Shown one piece after another: positions 5,489-55,010 of a stretch of 64,000 nt of DNA (the stretch's first letter is position 1; the number at the start of each line of letters is the position of its first letter). The stretch lies in the IMG/VR virus record IMGVR_UViG_3300037261_000012, positions 1 through 64,000 of that record. One strand, written 5' to 3'. The DNA is from a virus. The notes beneath the pieces are model-generated. The model saw nothing but the letters and a program-made list of their open reading frames with translations, did no database searches and was not told where the DNA came from. The translations under genes were made by a program, and so were the position numbers.

Positions 5489-5556
5489 AAAGGGCTTGAC
5501 AGTCCGGCAAATTGTGTTATACTTTGCAATCAAGTGCAGTAAGCAATGGAGTGGTT

Positions 5557-6732
5557 ATGTTCGAATTGTCTTACAAATCCCATATTCCCATTATCGGCGT
5601 GCAAACAGATGACGTTGTGAATGTTGAGGCTGTGTTGCAAACAATCACGGGAATGAAGACCCAACCTTTCCCGAAGGTGAAGATGGGGCAACTTGGGCCG
5701 TATCTATATTGGACTCAGGACATAGAGGTAGTCACTGCCGATAATTATAAGAATCTGGTGAAAACTGAGCATCAATTGGTGGTGATCAATTGCCATCATA
5801 ATTCACTGGTATTCGAAACAGGGCCATTGCTTACACCAAAATCAATGATCACGGCATATCTGGAAGACTTTGCCGAGGCTGAAAAGATACCCCACTTGCT
5901 GGAGGTTCTGAAAGGATTAAGCCTGAAGACTGCTAGTGAGATTGTGCAGCTAACCATGGCCAGTACTGGAGGAATCCTACCACAGGATGTGCGTAGAACC
6001 AGAACCAGATTGTCTGTTGGTGTTCGTGGATTACTGCCGTTGGATACGGAAATGGATTTCTACATCATGCCTCCGGTGTTGAAACAGTGGATTGACCTTA
6101 ACACCAAGTTCTTCCTGGATGACACTACACCATACCAGCTTCGCCCTAGAGGTCTGATGATGGCTGGTGAACGCGGCGTCGGCAAAACGATGGGTGCACG
6201 GGCAATAGCTTCAGCTTGGAATATCCCGTTGTACCGTTTGAATATTCCTACATCACTGGATAAGTACATAGGGGTATCCGAAGGGCGCATTGAGGACAGC
6301 CTGCTGCTGCTTGAGCGCGAAGCTCCATGCGTTGTTTTACTGGATGAGGTCGAAAAAATCTTCACCGGAAGTGATGAAAGTGGAGTAACTAAAAGAATAT
6401 TGAGCCAACTACTGTGGTGGTTGGCCGAGCACAGAAGCAAGGTTATTACGGTAATGACCACCAACGACCTGAAAAGCCTGCCCTCAGAGCTATACAGGGA
6501 AGGAAGGTTGGATAAGGTATTGCAGTTACCAATGCTTACCACGGCTGAATCAAAGGTCTTTGGTGTGGAAGTCTACAAGGGTGTTACTGGTTTTACCACC
6601 GTTGGCATGAAGGTTCAGAATTCCATAAGAAGTGCCGTGGAAGATGTTAATGCTCAGAATATGAGCCACGCTGAAGTATCAGGATTGGTGTATAACCTGA
6701 TCAAAAACCATCCATGGATGTTAGGAAAATAG
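5557..6732 (+). CDS. AAA+ ATPase (Ycf46-like)
   Basis: Walker A GERGVGKT, Walker B VLLDEVEK, TTN sensor, LPSELYREGRLD; start chosen at the ATG after the GGAG RBS. Confidence 0.88.
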   Translation: MFELSYKSHIPIIGVQTDDVVNVEAVLQTITGMKTQPFPKVKMGQLGPYLYWTQDIEVVTADNYKNLVKTEHQLVVINCHHNSLVFETGPLLTPKSMITAYLEDFAEAEKIPHLLEVLKGLSLKTASEIVQLTMASTGGILPQDVRRTRTRLSVGVRGLLPLDTEMDFYIMPPVLKQWIDLNTKFFLDDTTPYQLRPRGLMMAGERGVGKTMGARAIASAWNIPLYRLNIPTSLDKYIGVSEGRIEDSLLLLEREAPCVVLLDEVEKIFTGSDESGVTKRILSQLLWWLAEHRSKVITVMTTNDLKSLPSELYREGRLDKVLQLPMLTTAESKVFGVEVYKGVTGFTTVGMKVQNSIRSAVEDVNAQNMSHAEVSGLVYNLIKNHPWMLGK

Positions 6733-8982: not shown

Positions 8983-9587
8983 TGGCTGATAAGATAGAGG
9001 TCACAAAGACAGTAAAGACTGTGGACACTCATATTGTAGAAACTACCTCTACAGTGGAAACTACTTCCATGTTGGACGCGGTGGAACATAAGAGGATTAT
9101 CTCCGACATGGAACACGTTCTTACCACGGCAAACCTGCCTGAAAAGTACCTGCACGAAAGCATGATTCCTCATTGCCACTCAACGGAAGTTAATTGGGTA
9201 CGGAATTTCCGTGCTTTCAGAAAGACCCATGCTGGTCTGATAATAATCGGTGGGGACGACCCGGAAACCAGATGTCATGCAATTTGTGGGGCGCTTATCA
9301 GAAACTTCATTGACGCTAGGATAATCACGTTGAACACCGTGATTGAGAATATGGACACTGGAGATATACCAAACCCAACGGTATTGATCATGCCTAATTT
9401 GTTTGTTGAAATGCATGGTAAGGGTCTAACAAGCTGGCAAACACAAGGTATGTATGACGTGTTTCTTGCAAGATACTCCTCTAGACGCCCGAGCATAATG
9501 TACGTCCAATCAATGGAAAAGCTTGAAAAAGCCTATGGGTCGGTATTTGCTGGCCATCTAAACACTCACTACTGCTTTTCCTTATAA
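8979..9587 (+). CDS. Degenerate DnaC/IstB-like helicase loader
   Basis: ANLPEKY, GLIIIG (eroded Walker A), YDVFLARY..RRPSI; lies between initiator and helicase. Confidence 0.55.
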   Translation: MMADKIEVTKTVKTVDTHIVETTSTVETTSMLDAVEHKRIISDMEHVLTTANLPEKYLHESMIPHCHSTEVNWVRNFRAFRKTHAGLIIIGGDDPETRCHAICGALIRNFIDARIITLNTVIENMDTGDIPNPTVLIMPNLFVEMHGKGLTSWQTQGMYDVFLARYSSRRPSIMYVQSMEKLEKAYGSVFAGHLNTHYCFSL

Positions 9588-9599
9588 GAGAAATAAACT

Positions 9600-10868
9600 A
9601 TGTATGCTATTGGTATGAAAGCTATGCTACGGTTGTGTCAACACCAATCAGCGTTGGCTTGGCATAAGGCAAAATTATCACCAGTGCTGTTCAAGCAGGA
9701 TGAAGTTGCGGCTTTCCTGTGGGTTGATCAGCATGTGAAGCTCCACCATCAACTTCCACAGGTGGAGACCTTACTACAAGCATTCCCGTTATTCAAGGGG
9801 GTGGAGGTGCCGGAACCACCAAGCTACTACCTTAAACTGCTGGAGAATAAGTACTTCTACGAGCGCATAAACCAGGCGAACATTGCCAGCCAAGAACTTC
9901 TTAAAAGCGATAAGGATGCACATGATAAGGCAATGATCCTGCTTCAAGAAGCAATAAATGATTGTAAGTACCAGAAATACCGAGCTAGGATCATGGATGT
10001 TGGCTTTGAAGCACCAGGGGTAGTTCTTGCTGCCTACCATGATGTGTTGAAGCAAGAGGAGTTCCTGGAGTTTGGTTGGCCCCACATGGACTCCACTGGT
10101 GGGGTGATGCCAGGAGATGTAATTTCTATAGTTGGAAGGCCCGCAGCCGGGAAAACCTGGATGATGCTGTACATAGCACTGTATAACTGGATGCGTGGTA
10201 GAAACAGCTTGTTGGTGAGCATGGAGATGAGTCCACTGCCAATTGCCCAACGGGTAACCAGCATGTATGCACATACTAACATCAGTCAGTTGCAAGAGGC
10301 TGGCTATTCAATGTTTCCAGCAGGAGGAACCTACGCTAAGTTCGTACAGGGTCTCCAAAAACTGGAGAATGAGAAAGCCAAGCTGTACATAGTGGATGGG
10401 AACCTGGCGGCCAGTGCTGAAGACGTATTTATCTTGGCAGATCAATTAAAATGCAAGAACATATTGGTAGATGGGGCATACCTGTTACGCCATAAGAATG
10501 TTAGGCTGGACAGGTATACCAGGGCTGCTGAAAACGTGGAGTTGATGAAACGATCCTGCACTGACAGTGAAGCCAGTTGTTTTGCAAGCTGGCAGTTCGC
10601 CAAAACTGCTACTACTAAAGCCAAAGCACATAAAGGGCAAGGCGATCTTGAGGATATTGGATACACGGATGCAATAGCCCAGATTAGCTCTATTGTTCTT
10701 GGGTTGTTCCAGGAGGATGGGGTAGAGACTATGAAGAAGCGAAAGGTCAGTGCTTTGAAGGGACGGTCAGGACAGACGGGGGAGTTCAGTATTTTCTGGG
10801 ACTTCCTGAATATGGATTTCTCACAGGTTTTCGAGACTTTAGTACACGGCCCTCTGTCATTTGTATAA
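9600..10868 (+). CDS. dnaB: DnaB-like replicative helicase
   Basis: GRPAAGKT, VSMEM, ILVDGAY, SWQ, DIGYTDAIAQ, KGR. Confidence 0.88.
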   Translation: MYAIGMKAMLRLCQHQSALAWHKAKLSPVLFKQDEVAAFLWVDQHVKLHHQLPQVETLLQAFPLFKGVEVPEPPSYYLKLLENKYFYERINQANIASQELLKSDKDAHDKAMILLQEAINDCKYQKYRARIMDVGFEAPGVVLAAYHDVLKQEEFLEFGWPHMDSTGGVMPGDVISIVGRPAAGKTWMMLYIALYNWMRGRNSLLVSMEMSPLPIAQRVTSMYAHTNISQLQEAGYSMFPAGGTYAKFVQGLQKLENEKAKLYIVDGNLAASAEDVFILADQLKCKNILVDGAYLLRHKNVRLDRYTRAAENVELMKRSCTDSEASCFASWQFAKTATTKAKAHKGQGDLEDIGYTDAIAQISSIVLGLFQEDGVETMKKRKVSALKGRSGQTGEFSIFWDFLNMDFSQVFETLVHGPLSFV

Positions 10869-24180: not shown

Positions 24181-26119
24181 CGTCCAAGACACGGTGACGC
24201 TGATTCAGCGCAACGTCCATGTGATTGCTGCTGGAGACCCTGAATGGGGTGCAGCGTTCGAGAGAGCAATACCAAATTACCTGTCGAAGAAAGAAGTATT
24301 CGAACTTCCATACCTTATACAACTACGACGTTACCCAGTGGATGTAGATACGTTTGTTCATGGCAACATTTATTTGAACAAACCACGGGGAGAAATCTAC
24401 CCGGCAGTTCTGGAAGAACTAAGTAAGATCAATAACCCTGGTGGTGTACGGGTAGTCAACCCTTATTCAGAGGCAGTCTTTACTGGGGGCATTGGATCAA
24501 CCAAGTCCACTACTGCCTTGTACACAGTGGCGTACCAACTGTATGTCCTAAGCTGCTTTAAGAATCCACACCAGGTGTTTGGGTTGGATACAGCTTCTGA
24601 AATTCTGTTTATTTTTCAGGCTATTGGAGACACGGCAGAGAGTGACTACCAGCGTTTCTTGCATATGATTAAGGCCAGCCCGTACTTCAATAACGTATAC
24701 CCATGGGATAAGCGTATTCAGAGTAAGCTAAAATTCCCAGGTAGAGTGGAGGTCAAGCCCATAGAGTCTGATACTGGCACTATTGGTCAGAACGTCCTTG
24801 GAGGTATGCTGGATGAAGTAAACTGGATGGCTGTAACAACCTTTAGTAAGAAATCTCTTGATGGGGGTATCTACGATCAGGCAAGGACTATTTATAACAG
24901 TATAAGTAGACGGAGAAAGAGCCGGTTCTTAAAACAAGGTAAAGCGCCTGGAATACTGTGTCTAGTGTCATCCAAGAGATACCCAGGGGAATTCACGGAT
25001 GTAAAGATTGTGCAGAGCAAGAACGACCCAAGCATCTACGTGTTTGAAAAGAACGTATGGGATATGAAGCCGCCAGGTACGTTCACTAATGGGTACTTCA
25101 GGCTATTCAAAGGAGACCTGCTGAGGAAGGCCAGAGTTGTCAATGAAGGTGAGAGCCTGGACAGGCACGCTGAGATCATAGCCGATGAGTACCTCCAAGA
25201 GGATGAGGTACAGCTTACGATGTTGGTGCCTAACGACTTCCTTGGGGAATTCAAGGAGGATATGATTGGTTCCCTGAGGGACATCGCTGGCGTGAGTGTA
25301 ACCGCCAGATACCCATTCATTACCAATGGTGAGGCTGTTAATGAGATGTTCCAAGGAGGAGAATCCATACTGAATCTGGAAGAAACAGATATGGAGTCAA
25401 CCACTTTGCAGTTCTTTCCCAGCAAATTTAAGAACAAAGAGTGGCCGCGCTGGGTACATATTGACCTTGGGTTGACTTCTGATAGTGCAGGTGTATGTTG
25501 TGGGTATGTACCAAAGTTTGTGTTCACTGAAGACGGATTATTAATGCCGCAGATCAACCTGGACTTCCTACTGCGGGTGAAGCCACCGCCAAACAAGGAG
25601 ATTCAGTTTTACAAGATAAGAAATCTGCTGGTAAAGTTGAAAGAATCAGGGATTCCTATCCAATATGTGACGTTCGACCTATACCAATCTGCCGATTCTA
25701 TACAATTATTGAGGCATTTGGGTTTTAGCACTGGTAAGATAAGCACTACAACAGGTTTGATGCCGTACATGGTGTGTAAGACTGCCATATACCAGAGAAG
25801 GATAAAAGGTACGCCAAGTAAAAGGTGCCATGGAGAGTTGCTCTCACTAGAAATGTACACAACAGTAGGAAAACATGGTGTGATTGATCATCCCCCAGGG
25901 GGAAATAAGGATTTGGCCGATGCTTTAGCCTGTGTAGTATATGGCCTGACCACCAGGAGAGAAACCTGGCTGACACATGGTGTGCCAATTACACAAGCTG
26001 TGGCTGCATTTAAGGAAATAAGTACAACTGAAGGAGTAAAAGATGGAACAGACCCAGACGCTGATGACGGACAATCAATCAAGCCTTTTGAGCACGCCCA
26101 GAAGACCAGTTTTGCGTGA
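24164..26119 (+). CDS. terL: Terminase large subunit
   Basis: GGIGSTKST Walker A, MLDEV, VSS, nuclease HIDLG..SD, TFD, DH....KDLADA. Confidence 0.9.
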   Translation: MLLPSNVQDTVTLIQRNVHVIAAGDPEWGAAFERAIPNYLSKKEVFELPYLIQLRRYPVDVDTFVHGNIYLNKPRGEIYPAVLEELSKINNPGGVRVVNPYSEAVFTGGIGSTKSTTALYTVAYQLYVLSCFKNPHQVFGLDTASEILFIFQAIGDTAESDYQRFLHMIKASPYFNNVYPWDKRIQSKLKFPGRVEVKPIESDTGTIGQNVLGGMLDEVNWMAVTTFSKKSLDGGIYDQARTIYNSISRRRKSRFLKQGKAPGILCLVSSKRYPGEFTDVKIVQSKNDPSIYVFEKNVWDMKPPGTFTNGYFRLFKGDLLRKARVVNEGESLDRHAEIIADEYLQEDEVQLTMLVPNDFLGEFKEDMIGSLRDIAGVSVTARYPFITNGEAVNEMFQGGESILNLEETDMESTTLQFFPSKFKNKEWPRWVHIDLGLTSDSAGVCCGYVPKFVFTEDGLLMPQINLDFLLRVKPPPNKEIQFYKIRNLLVKLKESGIPIQYVTFDLYQSADSIQLLRHLGFSTGKISTTTGLMPYMVCKTAIYQRRIKGTPSKRCHGELLSLEMYTTVGKHGVIDHPPGGNKDLADALACVVYGLTTRRETWLTHGVPITQAVAAFKEISTTEGVKDGTDPDADDGQSIKPFEHAQKTSFA

Positions 26120-27305
26120 TCAGAGGCCCTTGTATAGTGGGCTTGGCTTTCACCCATTCAATGTGGTTGAAGCGGCCAAGGCACGCATACGCTGGCTGGT
26201 GCGCCGTTTCGATGATGTGATCGTGTCGTTCTCTGGTGGAAAAGACAGCTTGGTGTGTCTTGAGTTAGTTGACCAGGTATACAAGGAACTCGGTATACAT
26301 AAAAAGGTGAAGTTCAAATTCATGGATGAGGAGCTTGTGTGCGACAGCATCATTGATTTTCTTCAGAAGCAGTATGAGTGCGGGCGCTTCGAGGGCCAGT
26401 ACTACGCACTACAGATGTACGTGGGATTCTTCGTCATGGGTAGGCATGAGAAGTTCCTGTCCTGGGACACCAAGAGGAAGTGGCATAGGCAACCGCCCCC
26501 CTATGCGATAATGACCATGGGGCATGACACTTCTATTCACAATGAGAACACGATAAGTAAGCTTATGCATCCAGATACTAGTAGAAAAATCTGTGAGATA
26601 GTCGGTGTGCGGGCGCAGGAAAGCATGAAGCGTAAGCAAGCTATAAGTCGTGGGGGTCTTACCATAGGAGGACAACCTAACTACCTGTCATGTGAGGGTA
26701 TGGATCATATATGGAGCGCCAAACCAATATTCGACTGGTCTGAGTTAGATGTTTTCAAATTCTTCAGGGATTACAATATAGAATACTGCAACTGCTATGA
26801 TGCTCAAGCATGGACTAAAGCCCCCTTGCGCGTGGCAAGTGCCCTACACGAAAGAGCAGCCGGGCAGTTCTTCAAGATGAAGGAGATAGAGCCGCTGTTC
26901 TATGAACAACTTCGAAGTCTTTATCCAGAGATTGAAACACACTTCCGCTATTGGAAGGAAGTTGATCCATACACTACTATGTATCGCTACCCCAGGACTT
27001 TCGAAGGCATAAGACAGTACATAAGAGAACAGTTGGATGAATCCCACCGGGATACAGCATTGAAGTTTGTGAACATTGCTGAGGGGCGTCGCACTAAGAG
27101 AATGAAGCTTGATCCTACCTCTGTACTTGGAGACATGCCTGTGCTACAAGTATTTAGAGAAGTAATTGGCGGCAAATTTGTGAAAGGCGCAGCCTTCAGG
27201 TGTAACGTCAGTCAGGCCGATGTGGATTATGAAGAAGGGCGGGGCGGCCCAAACTTACCACTGCAATCAATTGCAGAACCTACGGTGGACTTTGGAGGTG
27301 CATGA
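26043..27305 (+). CDS. PAPS-reductase-like PP-loop protein (IbrA/YbdN-like)
   Basis: VSFSGGKDS, DEE, VGVRAQES..R, PIFDWS..DV, LRVAS. Confidence 0.85.
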   Translation: MEQTQTLMTDNQSSLLSTPRRPVLRDQRPLYSGLGFHPFNVVEAAKARIRWLVRRFDDVIVSFSGGKDSLVCLELVDQVYKELGIHKKVKFKFMDEELVCDSIIDFLQKQYECGRFEGQYYALQMYVGFFVMGRHEKFLSWDTKRKWHRQPPPYAIMTMGHDTSIHNENTISKLMHPDTSRKICEIVGVRAQESMKRKQAISRGGLTIGGQPNYLSCEGMDHIWSAKPIFDWSELDVFKFFRDYNIEYCNCYDAQAWTKAPLRVASALHERAAGQFFKMKEIEPLFYEQLRSLYPEIETHFRYWKEVDPYTTMYRYPRTFEGIRQYIREQLDESHRDTALKFVNIAEGRRTKRMKLDPTSVLGDMPVLQVFREVIGGKFVKGAAFRCNVSQADVDYEEGRGGPNLPLQSIAEPTVDFGGA

Positions 27306-28519
27306 TGGATAAAAATCTTTTAGGTATGTTGGTTGGGAAAAAACCCAGTGTAGTACAAAAAGGTGCCCCATATGGAAATATGAACTGGAAAGGAGGTAAT
27401 GGGGTTACTAGGGACTTCAGCACTGGAGATAAGGGTAAATCTACATTACCGTTGGTTGGTAAATCTTTAGCACTCAGAGGTAGTGAGTATGATTGGAAGA
27501 CTGGATCACAGAGAACGGATGCTGATTGGCATTCCACTAATAAAGAAGAAATACAAAGTAAGAATGATGCTCTTGTATCAGACTTATCCAAGGCAGGGTT
27601 TACTAAGGTAGGTGAGGAAACTAAACTAGGGGGACAATTGTGGAGGTCAGCAGACGGACATACTGAGGTAAGTACTAGGTTTATTACTTCCTTACCTAGT
27701 GCGGCTGGGGGACAAACTACATATGGAGCTATTGCAAGTGTGTATGTTGGTGGGGCTAAACCTCCAAAAGACCCTGAAATGAAAGGTGAAGGTGAGCCAA
27801 GAAAGTACAGTACTGACGAAACTCCAAGAGGAGATGAGAACCAGTATTTCTCAGCATGGATGGACAAGAAAACCAGTGAAAACTCCGACTTAACTCCTGC
27901 TCAGCGTGATGCTTCATTGAATTACACCACGGCTTACTTAGATATAAATCCATTTCTAAGAGGCACTGGAATACCAGAAGGGCATGATGGGCATAAATAC
28001 CCATTATCTGCTGAGGAGCGGGATACTACTATAAAAACACTTGATGGTATGATGCAACCTCTTGGAAAAGATGTAGTGTTGGGTAGAGGTGTTGGGCCTG
28101 AGCCTGCAAGAGATTTGGTGCAAGCATTTAAGGATGGGACATTGATAGGTAGAACCTTTGAGGATAAAGCCTATCTAAGCACTACTTATAACACCTCCCA
28201 AGGTCTTGGGTTCTTTGCTACTAAAGTGCCTTATAAAGATGGAAAGGAGGTTATTGTTACTATGAAAATACATGCTGACCGTGAAGTTAAAGGACTTTTT
28301 ATGCCTGGGTCTAATGATCTTACTGGAGAAGATATGGAAGTAGTTCTTGCCCGTAATACTCCTGTACATATCACGGGTGCTTCTCTGAAAAATGGAGTGT
28401 TAGAGTTGCAAGGACATGCTGGTGATTACATAAGTAAGAAAGCTGAAAACACTTATATAGCTTGGGGTGATCCTATGTATAAGGAGAAAAATCATGATCA
28501 AATCAGTAAAGAAGGTTGA
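27302..28519 (+). CDS. ADP-ribosyltransferase (VIP2/Alt-like, R-S-E class)
   Basis: YT..Y..INPFLR, VLGRGV, KAYLSTT, EDMEVVLARNT. Confidence 0.8.
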   Translation: MMDKNLLGMLVGKKPSVVQKGAPYGNMNWKGGNGVTRDFSTGDKGKSTLPLVGKSLALRGSEYDWKTGSQRTDADWHSTNKEEIQSKNDALVSDLSKAGFTKVGEETKLGGQLWRSADGHTEVSTRFITSLPSAAGGQTTYGAIASVYVGGAKPPKDPEMKGEGEPRKYSTDETPRGDENQYFSAWMDKKTSENSDLTPAQRDASLNYTTAYLDINPFLRGTGIPEGHDGHKYPLSAEERDTTIKTLDGMMQPLGKDVVLGRGVGPEPARDLVQAFKDGTLIGRTFEDKAYLSTTYNTSQGLGFFATKVPYKDGKEVIVTMKIHADREVKGLFMPGSNDLTGEDMEVVLARNTPVHITGASLKNGVLELQGHAGDYISKKAENTYIAWGDPMYKEKNHDQISKEG

Positions 28520-34656: not shown

Positions 34657-35199
34657 ATGGAAGCACCTGAGTTTGTAGAATTTGCAAAGATTGCACGCCT
34701 TAGTCGCTTATGTGTAGTGACTGAGAAAATTGATGGCACCAATGCGAGTATCTTCATCGGAGAGGACGGTGGATTCCTGACAGGTAGCCGCACGCGCTGG
34801 ATCACGCCCGAGGACGACAACTTTGGCTTCTCAAGATGGGCACATGAACATAAAGAAGAACTGCTTACCCTTGGGCCTGGGCACCATTTTGGTGAGTGGT
34901 GGGGGCAAGGAATACAGAGAAAGTATGATTTGAAAGAAAAAAGATGGAGTCTGTTTAACACTAGCAAGTGGACTGATCCTGCGGTTCGTCCGGCTTGTTG
35001 CCATGTTGCCCCTGTACTAGCCTCTGGGTTGTTCTCTGCTTTTGATTGGAACGACTTGTTGGAAGGATTAAAGATAAATGGGAGTCTTGCGGCTCCTGGT
35101 TTTATGAAGCCAGAGGGTATTGTTATCTGGCATGAACATGCTAGAACGTACTTCAAGAAGACTATTGAGAAAGATCAAGAGGGCAAATCATGGAAGTAA
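34657..35199 (+). CDS. RNA ligase (Rnl2-like nucleotidyltransferase)
   Basis: TEKIDGTN, GSR, FGEWWG.GIQ, PEGIV, K. Confidence 0.85.
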   Translation: MEAPEFVEFAKIARLSRLCVVTEKIDGTNASIFIGEDGGFLTGSRTRWITPEDDNFGFSRWAHEHKEELLTLGPGHHFGEWWGQGIQRKYDLKEKRWSLFNTSKWTDPAVRPACCHVAPVLASGLFSAFDWNDLLEGLKINGSLAAPGFMKPEGIVIWHEHARTYFKKTIEKDQEGKSWK

Positions 35200-35474
35200 A
35201 TAAACAAGGGCATATGATTGTCCTGGTGAATTCAGACAGTGGCGACAAACAGTATAGAGTGGACTTGACTGCCCAAAAATGTAGTTGCCCTGGGTGGATA
35301 TTCAGTAAAAATTATCCGCGAAATTGCAAGCACCTTCGTAGACTGGGTTATAGTGATGAAGTGCTTCTTGAGCAACAAGAAGCCGCAGGTAAATACCCAA
35401 ATCAAATAATCAACAAGCCGGAAGCCCAGCATTACACAAAGGAAGAACTGAAGGAGATTGCTGAAAAGCTATAA
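35190..35474 (+). CDS. SWIM zinc-finger protein
   Basis: CSCPGW...CKH. Confidence 0.75.
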   Translation: MEVNKQGHMIVLVNSDSGDKQYRVDLTAQKCSCPGWIFSKNYPRNCKHLRRLGYSDEVLLEQQEAAGKYPNQIINKPEAQHYTKEELKEIAEKL

Positions 35475-36027
35475 GGAGGATTATAATGGTGTATGGACGA
35501 ACTCCTACGCCAGTTAGATGTGAAAGCCAGGTTGTATGGAGACCTTAGCTTGGAGGCTCGCGCCGCCCTAAGAGTAAGAGAATTAGAAAGCCAAGTAAGT
35601 AACCTTCTGGCCAGCAAGAACATGCGCAAGATAGACATGGCGGTTTTCAAACGTAAGTAACTGCAATCAATTGCAGTCCAAGGAGTAACATGCAACGCAT
35701 TGAGTTGATAGATATAGTGCTATACACGGATATAGCATTATGTATTCTTATCTTAATTTCTTCAATTATTCAATGATGCTGTACTACCCTTGTATTACCC
35801 ATGTGTTTACAGGCAAAATCCAGCAGAAGGTTGGTGAGGCCATGACTCTTGCGGAGGCAACTCTCTTTCTTGTGAAACATTATCACTGTAAGTGGGTTAA
35901 TTGTGAAGCTATTCCACAACCAGTAAATCATGAATATTTTCAGAAATAGTTCAGAAAGTGCTTGACAGACTGCGCCGATTGCGGTAAATTGTAGTCATAG
36001 ATCGCAAATACGACAAGGAGTGTCAAA

Positions 36028-38049: not shown

Positions 38050-38184
38050 GCCCAGAGAAATGGTGGGTTGGTGTTAGGAAAGAACATAATGAGTTCTGGA
38101 GTTTTATTTGCCGAAAGTCCTTGACAGACTCGCCAAATTGTGGGAAACTTGGCAATCAATTGCAGTCAAGCAAAGGAGTGCAGT

Positions 38185-38617: not shown

Positions 38618-38796
38618 GCATCACCATACCAGGGTCTGTTTATACAGGCCCGCACTCACCAGCAGAGACAGCCAGACCGTTGTCTCCCAAGCAACAAGAT
38701 GGTGTCGTAGAGTACGAAAGTTGGTTAAATTTATTGCAAATAATGACGAAATAGTTCAGAAAGTACTTGACAAACTGCGCCGATTGCGGTAAATTG

Positions 38797-39225
38797 GGGA
38801 ATTACATACTTAACTCCCTCTGACCAAGAGGGACAACTGGAGAACAACGATGAGCAAGCAACTGACGTTCGATGAGTTTCGCGCTGCCAACGTGGCGCGC
38901 TGCCTCAAGTGGAATCCACAAGGGATTGAATCGTGGTCGCCGTCCGACTGGCTTACAGCCGTTACTGGCGAGCTTGGCGAACTGGCCTCGCTGTTGAAGA
39001 TGCGCAACCGTGAACGAGACGGCCTTCCCGGTAACAAATTCAGCCCAACCGACAAGCAAGTAGCTGACGAGATAGCAGATGTGCTCACCTATCTCGACCT
39101 GCTGGCCGCTGCGCTGGGCGTTGACTTGGGTTTCGCTGCGGCACAGAAATTTAACGAGGTAAGTGAGCGTGTAGGGTTCCCCGACCGCATCGAAATGGCG
39201 TGAGGGAGTTATGTATATAAGTCCC
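38797..39225. mobile_element. Non-autonomous mobile insertion cassette (IS1595-family-like ends) carrying mazG
   Basis: 22-bp TIRs (19/22 match) GGGAATTACATACTTAACTCCC / GGGAGTTATGTATATAAGTCCC; 8-bp direct repeat GTAAATTG at 38789-38796 and 39226-39233; no transposase. Confidence 0.85.
38850..39203 (+). CDS. MazG-like NTP pyrophosphohydrolase (cassette passenger)
   Basis: GELGELA, DEIADVLTYL, KFNEVS. Confidence 0.85.
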   Translation: MSKQLTFDEFRAANVARCLKWNPQGIESWSPSDWLTAVTGELGELASLLKMRNRERDGLPGNKFSPTDKQVADEIADVLTYLDLLAAALGVDLGFAAAQKFNEVSERVGFPDRIEMA

Positions 39226-39257
39226 GTAAATTGTAGTCATAACGGAGAAACCAGGTG

Positions 39258-39314
39258 TATTCGCCTACCAATTTAGGCATTAACGGACTTAACGCCTAAT
39301 TTGGTAGGCGAATA
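39258..39314. repeat. 57-bp near-perfect inverted repeat
   Basis: 26-bp arms, 24/26 complementary, 5-nt spacer CGGAC. Confidence 0.85.
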
Positions 39315-39417
39315 ATGATGAAATAGTTCAGAAAGTACTTGACAGATTCACTGGATTGTGGGAAACTCTAGTCATAGGTTGAAGATCAGAAGTTAAACCC
39401 AGACAAGGAGTGTCAAA

Positions 39418-39636
39418 ATGGAAACCAGCAAAACCCTGAGCGCCCAAGTAGTTCTTCGTGGCAACAGCCTGTACACTATCGTCACGATGCCCAGCACAAG
39501 CAACCTCGACAAGTCCTACCGCGTGGATGTAACTAATGGTCGTTGCGACTGCCCGGCCTGGAAATTCTCGAAGGGCCATACCAAGGTTTGCAAGCACCTG
39601 CAAGCACTGGGCTTCAAACAGCGCGTAGCAGCCTAA
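39418..39636 (+). CDS. SWIM zinc-finger protein (paralogue of 35190)
   Basis: YRVD...CDCPAW...CKHL. Confidence 0.75.
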   Translation: METSKTLSAQVVLRGNSLYTIVTMPSTSNLDKSYRVDVTNGRCDCPAWKFSKGHTKVCKHLQALGFKQRVAA

Positions 39637-39689: not shown

Positions 39690-40223
39690 ATGGGAATGAG
39701 CACTAACAGAATATTGCGGGCCGCTACCTTTGCCGTGCAAGCACACGGAATCCAGGTACGTAAGTATACTGGTGAGCCGTATGTGCGGCATGTGTTCGAA
39801 GTAGCTGAAATAGTGGCTAGTGTAACTACCGATGAGGACACGATCATTGCCGCCATGCTGCATGACGTGCTGGAAGACACCAGTATGGAGCCATCGGATA
39901 TATCATTGCGGTTCGGATTTATAGTACTTGATCTGGTGATGCAATTAACTGATTCCAAAGTAGAACCTGGGATCAATCGCGCTGCCAGGAAAGCCAATGA
40001 TTGCTCTCGTTTGTCATTATCTAGTCCAGCAGCGGCTACGATCAAACTGGCCGACTTGATGAACAACACAGAAAGCATCGTCAAGTATGCTCCTAACTTT
40101 GCCAAGGTGTATTTGGCAGAGAAGATGCTGGCACTCACGGTGTTGAGTCATGGCCATGCTGGGCTGTATCATCTTGCCAAAGAACAGGTCTTCAGTGCAT
40201 TGGAAAAGCTGGGACCAAAGTGA
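39690..40223 (+). CDS. HD-domain hydrolase (Mesh1/SpoT-type (p)ppGpp hydrolase-like)
   Basis: AH..Q.RKYTGEPY..H, LHDVLEDT, IKLAD...N. Confidence 0.85.
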   Translation: MGMSTNRILRAATFAVQAHGIQVRKYTGEPYVRHVFEVAEIVASVTTDEDTIIAAMLHDVLEDTSMEPSDISLRFGFIVLDLVMQLTDSKVEPGINRAARKANDCSRLSLSSPAAATIKLADLMNNTESIVKYAPNFAKVYLAEKMLALTVLSHGHAGLYHLAKEQVFSALEKLGPK

Positions 40224-41185: not shown

Positions 41186-41309
41186 CTTGACAGATCGGCC
41201 TGATTGTGGGAAACTCGGTTCTGATAGGCTGCAATCAATTGCAGAAATGTACTAAAGGAGAAGGCGGCCCTCCTAAATGGGTCGTCAAACAAGCAAGGAG
41301 TGTATCACC

Positions 41310-42964: not shown

Positions 42965-43288
42965 GCCTTGAACAAGCTATCTGGCTGTTTGCGGCTGGTG
43001 ATGTTGGTACCAGTAGGTATCTTGCTATTATTGTTCAAGAAATAATCATCTAAAGAGCTTGACAGATCGCCAGAATTGGGTTAAAGTCTTGCAATCAAGT
43101 GCAATAACAGACAAAGGAGTGTCAAATGTACATCGTTGAATACCTGAGGCTAGGACGTTGGCCCACCATGATGGGCAAGAGAGTGTTCATCAGTTTGTGG
43201 GGCGCAAACAAACGAGCTAAGCGAGCATCCACCTTGTTTCGTGTAGTGACCATGGTGACTAAAATCTCCTAAGGTGCGATAATGTTGG

Positions 43289-48286: not shown

Positions 48287-48358
48287 TTTCGAAAGTGCTT
48301 GACAGACTCTCGGAATTGTGGGAAAATCCAGTATTGATAGTCCAATGGAGTGGAAAGC

Positions 48359-50335
48359 ATGTTCCTGACTAAAGACTCACAAGAGATTCAGAACCTTTCT
48401 GATGAAGACCTTCGCATACTCCTTGGTGGTAAAGGAGCAGGGCTGGTGCAAATGATTAATGCCGGTGTTAATGTTCCTCCCTTCGTAGTTTTACCTACTA
48501 CTGTGTGGAAGGAGTACAGCAAAGCACCAAAAACAACTATGAAGGCTATATCTCAGGAGATTAACTCAATACTTACTAATTTCAAGAAGCAAATTGGGTA
48601 TATCCCTTTAGTATCTATTAGGTCTGGTGCGCGTGTAAGCTGCCCCGGAATGTTAGACACGATCTTGAATGTTGGGCTTGATATTACAACCCAGGACTTC
48701 TGGATGAGCAAGCTTGGCAAAGAGTGCTACGAGAACAGCCTGCACCGGTTGGTTACCATGTATGGTTCAGTGGTGAAAGGAATCGACAGGAAGGAATTGG
48801 AGCAATGCACTCCTGCTGCTGCGTTCGAACTCTATCAGCGCCGGTCTGGTGAGGTGTTCCCATTCGTGAAGTACCAGATCATCGGAGCCATAGAAGCCGT
48901 GCTAAAAAGCTGGAACAACGAGCGCGCAAAGTATTACCGCAAGATGCACAATATTCCTGAAACATGGGGTACAGCCGTGGTAATACAAGCCATGGTGTTC
49001 GGCAATCTTAATGATCAATCAGGTACGGGAGTTCTTTTTACACGCAATCCTGATAGTGGTGCCAATGCTATCACAGGGGAATTCTTGATAAACGCTCAAG
49101 GTGAGGACGTGGTTGCTGGGATCAGGACTCCGATGCCGTTGCACAAGCTGGCTGAGTGGAACAAGCTGGTGTCTGACGAACTTGCTTCAGTTGTGGAGAA
49201 ACTGGAGAAATCCAAGCAGGATGTTCAAGACGTGGAATTTACGATCCAGGATGGCAAGCTGTTCATTCTGCAAACTAGGAATGCCAAGCGGAGTGCCAAA
49301 GCAGCCATCAGGATTGCCCTGGACATGGTGAAAGAGGGCTTGATTTCAGCAAATGTGGCCGTAGGTCGCGTGACTGCCAGAGATATGGATTTGGTGCAAA
49401 TGAATGTGATTAGCCCGAAATTCAAGAATGTACCTGCCTTTACTGGAATAGGAGCGTGCAGTGGAGTAGTTACTGGGGTGCCAGTGTTCAGCACGGCAGA
49501 TGCGGTAGCCAGCAAGGTTCCGTGTATCCTCATTACCCAAGAAACCACGCCGGAAGACATCGCAGGAATGGATGCAGCGGTTGGAATACTGACTATGACC
49601 GGTGGAACAACCAGCCACGCTGCTGTTGTTGCGCGGGGGATGAACAAGCCATGTGTAGTGGGTTTGGGCGTTGGCCTTAGTGAATTAGCCAATTATGCAT
49701 GGGAGAAGGTTAGCATCTGCGGTGAGACAGGACGAGTGTGGTTCATGGAAGTTCCTGTTACTAATGGCAGCCAGAATGGAGACCTTGCTGAGTTCAAGGC
49801 CATGGTGATTGCTGCCCTTGGAATCATTCCGGTGGTTACTGATCCTACCACTCAGTGCAAGGAAATGATGCTTGATTTGAGCAATGAAACAAACATAGCC
49901 AGAGCACAATTGCTGGTGATGAAAGCGGCTGGTATGTGCGAGATGCTGTACGTGGACTTCCGCAAGGAGAACTTGCCGGAAGCCAGCCAGTCCTTCAACC
50001 GGATGTACGGGTCAACTACATTAGAGCAATCTATAGTGGATGCTGTCTGCAATCAATTGCAGTCCGTAGCCCCCTCTGGGTGGGAAGTCCACATCAAGGT
50101 AATGGTGAGCAATGGGATCAAAACAACCATGCCAATGATCGGAACTATGGACGACATCAAGAGTCTGATTCTTGCTAAAGGTAGTGTGGTGGTTGGCGGG
50201 GAAGACCTGGATGCGGCCACTAAGAAAGTGCTTGAGTGGAAAAAGGCTGAAGGGTTGGAGTTAATGTCAGTTGGAGGGTACATGCCTGGAGTCAAATCTG
50301 TCCTCTCAATTGAGCAGGCAATGCAGATAGAGTAA
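48359..50335 (+). CDS. Pyruvate phosphate dikinase-like protein lacking the PEP/pyruvate-binding barrel
   Basis: LGGKGAGL, VSIRSGA..SCPGMLDTILN, QAMVFGN, NAQGEDVVAGIRTP, DVEFT..LQTR, phospho-His GGTTSHAAVVARG; unrelated C-terminus of about 190 aa. Confidence 0.9.
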   Translation: MFLTKDSQEIQNLSDEDLRILLGGKGAGLVQMINAGVNVPPFVVLPTTVWKEYSKAPKTTMKAISQEINSILTNFKKQIGYIPLVSIRSGARVSCPGMLDTILNVGLDITTQDFWMSKLGKECYENSLHRLVTMYGSVVKGIDRKELEQCTPAAAFELYQRRSGEVFPFVKYQIIGAIEAVLKSWNNERAKYYRKMHNIPETWGTAVVIQAMVFGNLNDQSGTGVLFTRNPDSGANAITGEFLINAQGEDVVAGIRTPMPLHKLAEWNKLVSDELASVVEKLEKSKQDVQDVEFTIQDGKLFILQTRNAKRSAKAAIRIALDMVKEGLISANVAVGRVTARDMDLVQMNVISPKFKNVPAFTGIGACSGVVTGVPVFSTADAVASKVPCILITQETTPEDIAGMDAAVGILTMTGGTTSHAAVVARGMNKPCVVGLGVGLSELANYAWEKVSICGETGRVWFMEVPVTNGSQNGDLAEFKAMVIAALGIIPVVTDPTTQCKEMMLDLSNETNIARAQLLVMKAAGMCEMLYVDFRKENLPEASQSFNRMYGSTTLEQSIVDAVCNQLQSVAPSGWEVHIKVMVSNGIKTTMPMIGTMDDIKSLILAKGSVVVGGEDLDAATKKVLEWKKAEGLELMSVGGYMPGVKSVLSIEQAMQIE

Positions 50336-54607: not shown

Positions 54608-55010
54608 AGGTAAATAGTGAAGAAAGTGCTTGACAGATCGGGTGAATTGTGGGAAACTCCTCTATGAAGTGCAATCAATTGCAGTGCTAACCAAAGGAGT
54701 GGAAGATGAAGATTGTGTTTGGTAATATCCCGCCGAGAACAAAACTTCTAAGATTAACTGAGGTTGGTGAAGTTGTTATGCGTACAGGGGTTGGATGCAC
54801 ATAATCTAAATCTTTTAGTATTGGATGTCAAGGAGACATCATAATGCGGGCAGTAGCATGTGATGTTACACGAAAAGCCATTGAAAGAACTCGCAGTGAA
54901 CCATGGCGAGATACCTACGTTGTTAATCTTAAGACCGGCAGCGCCTGGTTTGCTGATGGCAACGAACAAGTCATTCCGATGAAAGCAGTCCTGGGCGTGG
55001 AGAAAGACCA

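Follow-up and report, generated by a model that had tools for sequence, protein, structure and literature searches.

A promoter-inserted 429-bp cassette with IS1595-type ends and a single mazG-type gene in a phage genome

The phage genome represented by IMG/VR record IMGVR_UViG_3300037261_000012 carries, within one of its early-type promoters, a 429-bp cassette (38797-39225) that is very probably a non-autonomous derivative of the IS1595 family of insertion sequences, that is, a mobile insertion cassette (MIC); this assessment covers our preferred explanation as a whole, including the steps of insertion and expression proposed below. The limits of the cassette were read directly from the window, by which we mean the entire 64,000-nucleotide stretch of DNA analyzed here. 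The phage contig itself has a length of 94,883 bp and closes, with 127-bp terminal repeats at its ends. The class of elements to which the cassette belongs is known, and the cassette is ordinary within it; the place where it was found is unusual. Its parts and the landmarks around it are as follows.

35962-35999, + strand: paralogous, uninterrupted promoter, with TTGACA at 35962-35967, GTAAATTG at 35984-35991 and TAGTCATA at 35992-35999
38767-38772, + strand: TTGACA, the -35 hexamer of the early-type phage promoter interrupted by the cassette
38789-38796, no strand assigned: left target-site duplication (TSD) GTAAATTG, containing the -10 hexamer TAAATT (38790-38795)
38797-38818, + strand: left inverted repeat (IRL) GGGAATTACATACTTAACTCCC, 22 bp
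38819-38849, + strand: leader of 31 nt, with the Shine-Dalgarno sequence GGAG at 38839-38842 and the ATG 7 nt further on
38850-39203, + strand: cargo ORF of 117 aa, MazG-type (DCTPP1/RS21-C6-like), its TGA abutting the right inverted repeat
39204-39225, - strand: right inverted repeat (IRR) GGGAGTTATGTATATAAGTCCC, reverse complement GGGACTTATATACATAACTCCC, beginning on the base after the TGA
39226-39233, no strand assigned: right TSD GTAAATTG, a second -10 hexamer that lacks a -35 at the right distance
39258-39314, + strand: strong hairpin with 26-nt arms (-34.6 kcal/mol, z -8.0), downstream of the insertion site and ahead of the next promoter

The original prediction, made from the sequence alone, had described a 429-bp insert with 22-bp terminal inverted repeats matching at 19 of 22 positions, an 8-bp duplication of the target and a single ORF whose stop codon abuts the right repeat, and all of these components were recovered at the positions it gave. 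Compared as direct repeats the two ends still match at 16 of 22 positions, because each 22-mer is nearly palindromic. The duplication GTAAATTG is perfect over its 8 bp on both sides of the cassette. A search of the window that allowed three mismatches found IRL and IRR as the only 22-bp end sites (none expected, from 100 shuffles); the ends occur as this single pair in the complete 94,883-bp genome as well, where no second copy was found. A repeat search extended the inverted arms to 24 nt at 88%. Between the ends, 354 of the 385 internal bases belong to one intact and conserved ORF, which is the only long ORF of the cassette and does not encode a transposase. This coding content rules out the description of the cassette as a MITE. 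The GC content of the cassette is 55%, versus 46.9% for the genome; the gap is moderate, and some phage genes near the cassette reach 58-62%.

The IRL folds on its own into a weak hairpin (-4.1 kcal/mol) and the second 22-mer, the IRR, into a small one (-7.7 kcal/mol), and a 7-bp helix pairs the final bases of the IRL with the cassette leader. Either the IRL hairpin or the IRL-leader helix could dampen translation of mazG. Sequestration of GGAG by the CTCCC end of the repeat was considered as a family-wide trait and dropped, since most leaders in the family are too short to fold in this way.

The promoter that received the cassette provides the second line of evidence. A promoter scan called TTGACA-17-TAAATT at 38767-38795 with 10 of 12 matches, and the point of insertion lies one base past the -10 hexamer. 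The duplicated 8-mer GTAAATTG includes this -10, and its left copy retains the 17-nt spacing to TTGACA. Consequently, TTGACA-17-TAAATT is still intact, and the proposal that the duplication had preserved the -10 box is borne out by the location of the hexamer inside the 8-mer. The genome contains about 17 copies of this promoter on the + strand (consensus AAATAGTTCAGAAAGTGCTTGACA-N17-(G/T)AAA(C/T/A)T). Its uninterrupted twin at 35962, which reads ...GATTGCGGTAAATTGTAGTCATA, had been put forward as the empty-site counterpart. When the insert and one TSD were removed in silico from the 38767 promoter, leaving the predicted empty junction ...GCGGTAAATTG joined to TAGTCATAACGG, the restored site was identical to the 35962 promoter at 55 of 57 positions in one contiguous block, and among the ~17 copies 35962 is the closest to it. 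Note that this model of the empty site comes from elsewhere in the phage's own genome: it is a paralogue and not an allele.

The hairpin at 39258-39314 is flanked by tandem promoter blocks (38736-38793 and 39308-39365) that are 81% identical, and the next promoter downstream of it has its TTGACA at 39339-39344. The hairpin has neither a U-tract nor a gene, a 14-codon GTG ORF overlaps it, and an Rfam search of this segment returned only chance-level miRNA matches and no credible family. Without the cassette, the 38767 promoter would have had nothing but this hairpin to transcribe. The insertion therefore disrupted no gene.

Promoters of the window also differ in what follows the -10. Those at 5495-5560, 38120-38180, 41186-41250, 43058-43120 and 54629-54700 have the palindrome TGCAATCAATTGCA (or TGCAATCAAGTGCA) just 3' of the -10, a sequence that resembles the operator of a phage regulator, and the promoters at 35961, 38766 and 39338 have TAGTCATA in its place. 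Two SWIM zinc-finger proteins, one of 94 aa (35190-35474) and one of 72 aa (39418-39636), are each encoded behind a TAGTCATA-type promoter.

Membership in the IS1595 family had been proposed from the ends of the cassette, and the same ends in other genomes provide the evidence for it. A degenerate 22-mer of the cassette ends was used as query against IMG/VR and against a collection with one genome per prokaryote species, and it identified 68 viral loci and at least 120 bacterial loci. Scripted pairing of the 68 viral loci produced about 55 forward-reverse end pairs with spans of 222-2039 bp, 36 of which are flanked by perfect 8-bp duplications, as are 26 of 40 bacterial pairs among the matches listed. 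When all pairs are considered (the bacterial part again among the matches listed), perfect 8-bp duplications are present in 62 of 95, and their targets are 83% A+T. Ends of the IRL/IRR type also bound some 50 further segments of 0.2-1.2 kb, most of them with perfect, AT-rich 8-bp duplications. Beyond position 22 the ends abruptly cease to be conserved, and the targets of the family are AT-rich 8-mers that, in other genomes, are not tied to any set place relative to promoters.

Five viral elements of 1.8-2.0 kb (L021, L032, L042, L044 and L056) each encode a protein of 305-307 aa that matches the full profile of DDE_Tnp_IS1595 (PF12762, E 1e-41 to 1e-47) together with Zn_ribbon_IS1595 (PF12760), and that scores 197-207 bits on the NCBIfam IS1595 model NF033547, for which the cut-off is 75. 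Among the bacterial matches listed, about 25 elements with the same ends encode a transposase. The family assignment thus gains direct support from ends that flank IS1595 transposases in both viral and bacterial elements, and the autonomous partners and the cassettes with other passengers (methyltransferases, Mom, NUDIX and proteins of no recognised family) that the inverted repeats had been expected to reveal do exist in other contigs, the partners in 5 viral and ~25 bacterial cases among the matches listed. In addition, GGGAATTAT fits what we take to be the ISfinder end motif (ggnnatTAT), and the subgroup is probably that of ISNwi1.

Viral and bacterial members of the family differ in size and content. 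The median length is 425 bp in viral members versus 1874 bp in bacterial members among the matches listed. In nearly all of these listed bacterial members a transposase lies some 67 nt away from one end, with 0.7-2.1 kb of passenger DNA behind it, and passenger genes occur in every full-length relative among the matches listed; in viral members the transposase is mostly absent. The bacterial hosts of the ends, again among the matches listed, are mostly Terriglobia and other Acidobacteriota, Alpha-, Beta- and Gammaproteobacteria, and Planctomycetota, and their source assemblies are mostly from peat, bog, fen and soil. Note that some 'bacterial' contigs are binned phage contigs, such as the 95,161-bp record of L106 and L178. 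The exact IRL 22-mer, which is the end variant with C at position 9 (GGGAATTACATAC...), was found in 32 of 68 viral loci versus 4 of the 80 bacterial loci examined, and these four (L144, L146, L160 and L169) are all from Acidobacteriota. In the 94,883-bp phage genome itself, no match to PF12762 was found. Lacking an IS1595 transposase of its own, the phage would have received a cassette mobilised in trans.

Some of the loci present unusual arrangements of family members. One viral contig (L038:8154-9874) contains three family cassettes within 1.7 kb, two of which overlap by 3 bp (9099-9519 and 9517-9874), and its 358-bp cassette recurs in another contig (L047) at a different site. In the chromosome of an alphaproteobacterial MAG (L141:1140-2196), three identical 347-bp end-bounded elements lie in tandem, separated by CAATTAAA; this tandem is either an array-like amplification or an effect of assembly.

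The compact layout of the cassette recurs throughout the small members of the family. Oriented by their ORF, about 33 of 53 begin with an IRL and a GGAG-containing leader of 10-31 nt, and the ORF that follows has its stop codon within the IRR or at most one base away from it. Two of the three reading frames meet a TAA within the IRR, and in the remaining frame a TAG or TGA is completed by the first G of the repeat. The 31-nt leader of the present cassette is too short to hold a promoter, and cassettes of this kind would need one outside them. About 23 of 32 viral cassettes are co-oriented with flanking genes, by a crude strand-majority estimate that miscalls this window and constitutes weak evidence.

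Among 39 distinct viral passengers, Pfam and PHROGs recognised D12, Dam, N6_N4 and C5 DNA methyltransferases, two Mom-like proteins, one NUDIX hydrolase and the MazG described here; others are small proteins of no recognised family. The passengers of transposase-bearing bacterial elements, among the matches listed, include DNA methylases and are mostly genes of no recognised family. Within this sample the cargo pool looks enriched in DNA-modification and nucleotide enzymes. One further end pair (L009:3433-4595, also in L055 and L067) surrounds a 375-aa TnpB with OrfB_IS605 and Cas12f-like TNB domains; the 8-mers flanking the L009 pair differ, and the pair represents either one cassette or two separate ends.

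The cargo gene looks intact, and its predicted product belongs to the MazG (all-alpha NTP pyrophosphohydrolase) superfamily, in which it most resembles the dCTPase DCTPP1. The 117-aa protein scores below the gathering cut-offs of Pfam (21.5 bits for MazG-like PF12643, with a cut-off of 27, and 17.4 bits for MazG PF03819, with a cut-off of 22), and NCBIfam and PHROGs gave no match. Membership in the superfamily follows instead from a match to sequences of solved structures, from a conserved motif and from the predicted fold, and it is at this level that the label 'mazG-like' given to the gene was correct. A phmmer search of PDB sequences matched the human and mouse dCTP pyrophosphatase 1 (RS21-C6; 7mu5 for DCTPP1) with E 1.8e-7 to 8e-6, and also YpjD of B. 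subtilis; identity to DCTPP1 and the single-domain MazG enzymes is 27-30%. Residues E41, E44, E74 and D77 are invariant in an alignment of 31 sequences that reaches down to 34% identity, constitute the EXXE...EXXD metal-binding motif, and align with the motif of DCTPP1. An AlphaFold model of the cargo is a four-helix bundle (pLDDT 95.1) for which Foldseek returned DCTPP1, RS21-C6, YpjD, iMazG and the MazG of S-2L at probability 1.00 and TM 0.6-0.77, with a Bacillus MazG also among the best matches.

A large protein collection contains 549 homologues of the cargo, and the best 120 of the 549 are all at least 82% identical and carry the JGI name 'NTP pyrophosphatase (non-canonical NTP hydrolase)'. 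The nearest relatives, with up to 94% amino acid identity, are ordinary phage genes without the ends of the family. Three MazG proteins from short contigs (P0001, P0004 and P0017) have 117-118 aa and are 92-94% identical to the cargo. Twenty related mazG genes were located in IMG/VR, in higher-GC phage contigs of 7-65 kb, and family ends were found at none of the 20 loci. DNA homology to the closest relative (83% at the nucleotide and 94% at the amino acid level) extends exactly from the ATG to the stop codon. Consequently, the shell contains precisely one ORF of a gene family that normally resides in phage genomes. A tblastn search of the repeat-bearing loci for a second mazG found only a relative of 33% identity, in L027, outside the adjacent element.

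Solved enzymes of the DCTPP1 type act on dCTP and 5-modified dCTP, and dNTP pools are the target of other small MazG proteins from phages. By analogy, the cargo would most likely hydrolyze some (d)NTP early in infection. Its closest solved relatives are dCTP pyrophosphatases and not (p)ppGpp hydrolases, and no sequence tie between this MazG and (p)ppGpp was seen; the anti-alarmone role raised in the original prediction would be a possible alternative.

Two genes downstream of the cassette, at 39690-40223, lies a gene for a stand-alone 177-aa HD protein of the RelA/SpoT type (HD_4 E 6e-19; TIGR00691 region) that resembles alarmone hydrolases, which shows that the early region is involved in nucleotide signalling. 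The segments 26043-28519 and 48350-50335 of the window encode proteins that are PAPS-reductase-like (phrog_2302), ADP-ribosyltransferase-like (phrog_3895) and large and kinase-like (phrog_18609), and the phage also encodes DnaB, a UvsX-like recombinase and a family A polymerase.

The original prediction had asked for empty sites in related phages, and here the search came back negative: no orthologous empty allele was found in the viral and metagenome collections, and the only empty site found is the paralogue of the same genome. BLAST searches of the locus for near and distant relatives among GenBank phages gave no match, and no DNA-level relative of the phage was retrieved from GenBank phages, from viral contigs, or through neighbour proteins and promoters. 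Five viral contigs of 88-101 kb that share the ends were discarded as relatives, since only the ends match and no orthologous site is present. Searches for related loci with two neighbour proteins and with the 23-nt promoter consensus retrieved no usable relative, the latter returning one contig that shares only a single promoter-like 24-mer. Exact matches in metagenome contigs were absent for a 30-mer of the predicted empty site and for a 29-mer of the IRL-leader junction, searches from which diverged alleles and diverged copies would escape. No second copy of the mazG cassette was found in the viral and metagenome collections, and for this reason the mobility of this particular cassette is read from its TSD and from the behavior of its family.

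Taken together, these patterns are consistent with the following chain of events. An IS1595 DDE transposase that binds the two 22-bp ends, supplied in trans by a complete element either on the host chromosome or in a co-infecting phage, would have cut an AT-rich 8-bp target with staggered nicks, the target being the -10 of an early-type, sigma-70-like promoter. Repair of the gaps would have duplicated GTAAATTG, and with the left copy 17 nt from TTGACA the promoter would have remained intact. Transcription would start about 7 nt past the -10, inside the IRL, and would read through the leader and its GGAG into the cargo, itself presumably derived from a gene family that is widespread in other phages of higher GC content. 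The original prediction that the passenger is placed under a phage promoter agrees with this geometry; transcription of mazG from that promoter would be its expected outcome, as judged from the sequence. The substrate of the cargo and its benefit to the phage are matters that we infer. Because targets elsewhere have no fixed relation to promoters, we read the landing in a promoter as the product of AT-rich target preference and of the survival of an expressed and harmless insertion.

Several other histories would also place a gene behind this promoter. T4-type phages shuffle promoter-plus-stem-loop cassettes by recombination, and the present genome offers material of this kind in its ~17 scattered + strand promoter copies and in the tandem, 81% identical blocks with the strong stem-loop between them. 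That the gene was gained by homologous or illegitimate recombination between such repeated promoter modules, with incidental inverted repeats, is nevertheless very improbable: the junctions are made of a perfect 8-bp duplication and 22-bp inverted repeats, not of promoter repeats, and lie outside the promoter homology, and the same ends are found around IS1595 transposases and around dozens of unrelated cargos, in genomes that are likewise unrelated and where the promoter is absent. The inverted repeats themselves could be taken for regulatory hairpins that bracket a gene for RNA processing, termination or protein binding, given that each 22-mer is a near-palindrome that folds (at -4.1 and -7.7 kcal/mol) and that the family consensus contains a -10-like TATACT. 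We consider it highly unlikely that they are such hairpins and not transposon ends, in view of pairs that are consistently mutually inverted and flanked by 8-bp direct duplications of varied sequence, of longer pairs that enclose an IS1595 transposase, and of a conservation that ends at position 22, with duplications that are not part of a longer conserved motif.

A third alternative accepts the IS1595 cassette and questions its expression, its cargo being silent or driven by a promoter in or at the IRL and its position reflecting AT-rich preference only. The family does target AT-rich 8-mers in no constant relation to promoters, and the TATACT of consensus ends serves as -10 in phage promoters near 5495 and 29203. 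In this cassette, however, the corresponding hexamer is CATACT, and its distance of 32 nt to the -35 is too great, whereas the phage -10 is intact at 17 nt and the leader has no room for a promoter; the ORF is moreover intact and its catalytic residues are invariant. We therefore judge this alternative to be unlikely. The chance that a bacterial cassette was joined to the phage contig by chimeric assembly is close to negligible. The record is a metagenome-assembled virus and the GC content of the cassette (55%) departs from that of the genome (46.9%), but both junctions are exact, removal of the cassette restores the promoter to 55 of 57 identities with its paralogue, the target duplication is beyond what an assembler can create, and the contig closes with its 127-bp terminal repeats. 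Insertion of an IS1595-family MIC into a promoter that it left intact remains our preferred explanation.

The cassette resembles several known systems and differs from each of them. Siguier, Gagnevin and Chandler reportedly described the IS1595 family in 2009, in Res Microbiol, and are said to have included in it passenger-carrying 'transporter IS' forms. The present element shares with this family its ends, which are those of elements with DDE_Tnp_IS1595 and zinc-ribbon domains, and its 8-bp AT-rich TSDs, and the full-length relatives among the matches listed are indeed passenger-carrying 'transporter' forms; in contrast, this copy has only 429 bp, lacks a transposase, and resides in a 95-kb phage of lytic appearance. 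MICs such as MIC231, which derives from IS231, are known from the Bacillus cereus group. Like them, the cassette consists of IS ends around a coding passenger without transposase, is flanked by TSDs, and was presumably moved in trans. Unlike MIC231, it belongs to another IS family, sits on a phage replicon, and is packed to an extreme, its leader measuring 31 nt and its stop codon lying directly against the end, and the cargo pool of its family is dominated by DNA-modification and nucleotide-hydrolase genes.

Solved relatives of the cargo product (DCTPP1/RS21-C6, YpjD and the MazG of cyanophage S-2L, PDB 7ody) share with it the four-helix fold and the EXXE...EXXD motif, but the cargo is only 27-30% identical to them. 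Integron cassettes are similar in being promoter-less single ORFs that use an outside promoter, and they too can carry a small MazG (Vibrio iMazG, PDB 2q5z and 2q73); the present cassette differs in having no attC and no integrase, and in DDE transposition with a TSD instead of site-specific recombination. MITEs are common to prokaryotes and viruses (PMC11602168, Nucleic Acids Res 2024), in an account whose text mentions neither IS1595 nor passenger or cargo genes. They are likewise non-autonomous inverted-repeat elements of viral contigs and hosts that can be used as a link to the host, but the interior of a MITE is non-coding whereas the cassette is almost wholly one ORF. We found no description of IS1595 cassettes in phages in the literature, and the wider pool of IS1595-ended cassettes is still undescribed.

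The features of this pool allow a broader, tentative reading, which we rate as somewhat short of probable. The one-gene shells with IS1595 ends could constitute a gene-shuttle pool adapted to phages, similar to integron cassettes, but moved by a DDE transposase and devoid of promoters. Each shell would enclose a single ORF, with one end and its ribosome-site leader in front and the other end providing the stop codon. The shells would then have to land behind a promoter, as could have happened here. Genes for evasion of restriction (Dam, N4/N6 and C5 methylases, and Mom) and nucleotide-hydrolase genes (MazG and NUDIX) could spread in this way among unrelated phages of soil and peat bacteria. 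Under the same reading, the end variant with C at position 9 could be largely limited to viral contigs and Acidobacteriota.

To our knowledge, insertion sequences are regarded as rare in the genomes of lytic-type phages, and the way in which these phages acquire individual accessory genes is, as far as we know, mostly unexplained. The cassette represents one complete route of gene gain, in which a gene typical of other phages is enclosed in a 429-bp transposable shell that lands where a resident promoter can express it. Since the exact IRL variant was found in bacteria only in Acidobacteriota (among the 80 loci examined), it also provides a lead to the host of this phage lineage. Finally, the cassette family is a concrete system in which the exchange of genes one at a time, among phages as well as between phages and their hosts, can be tested.
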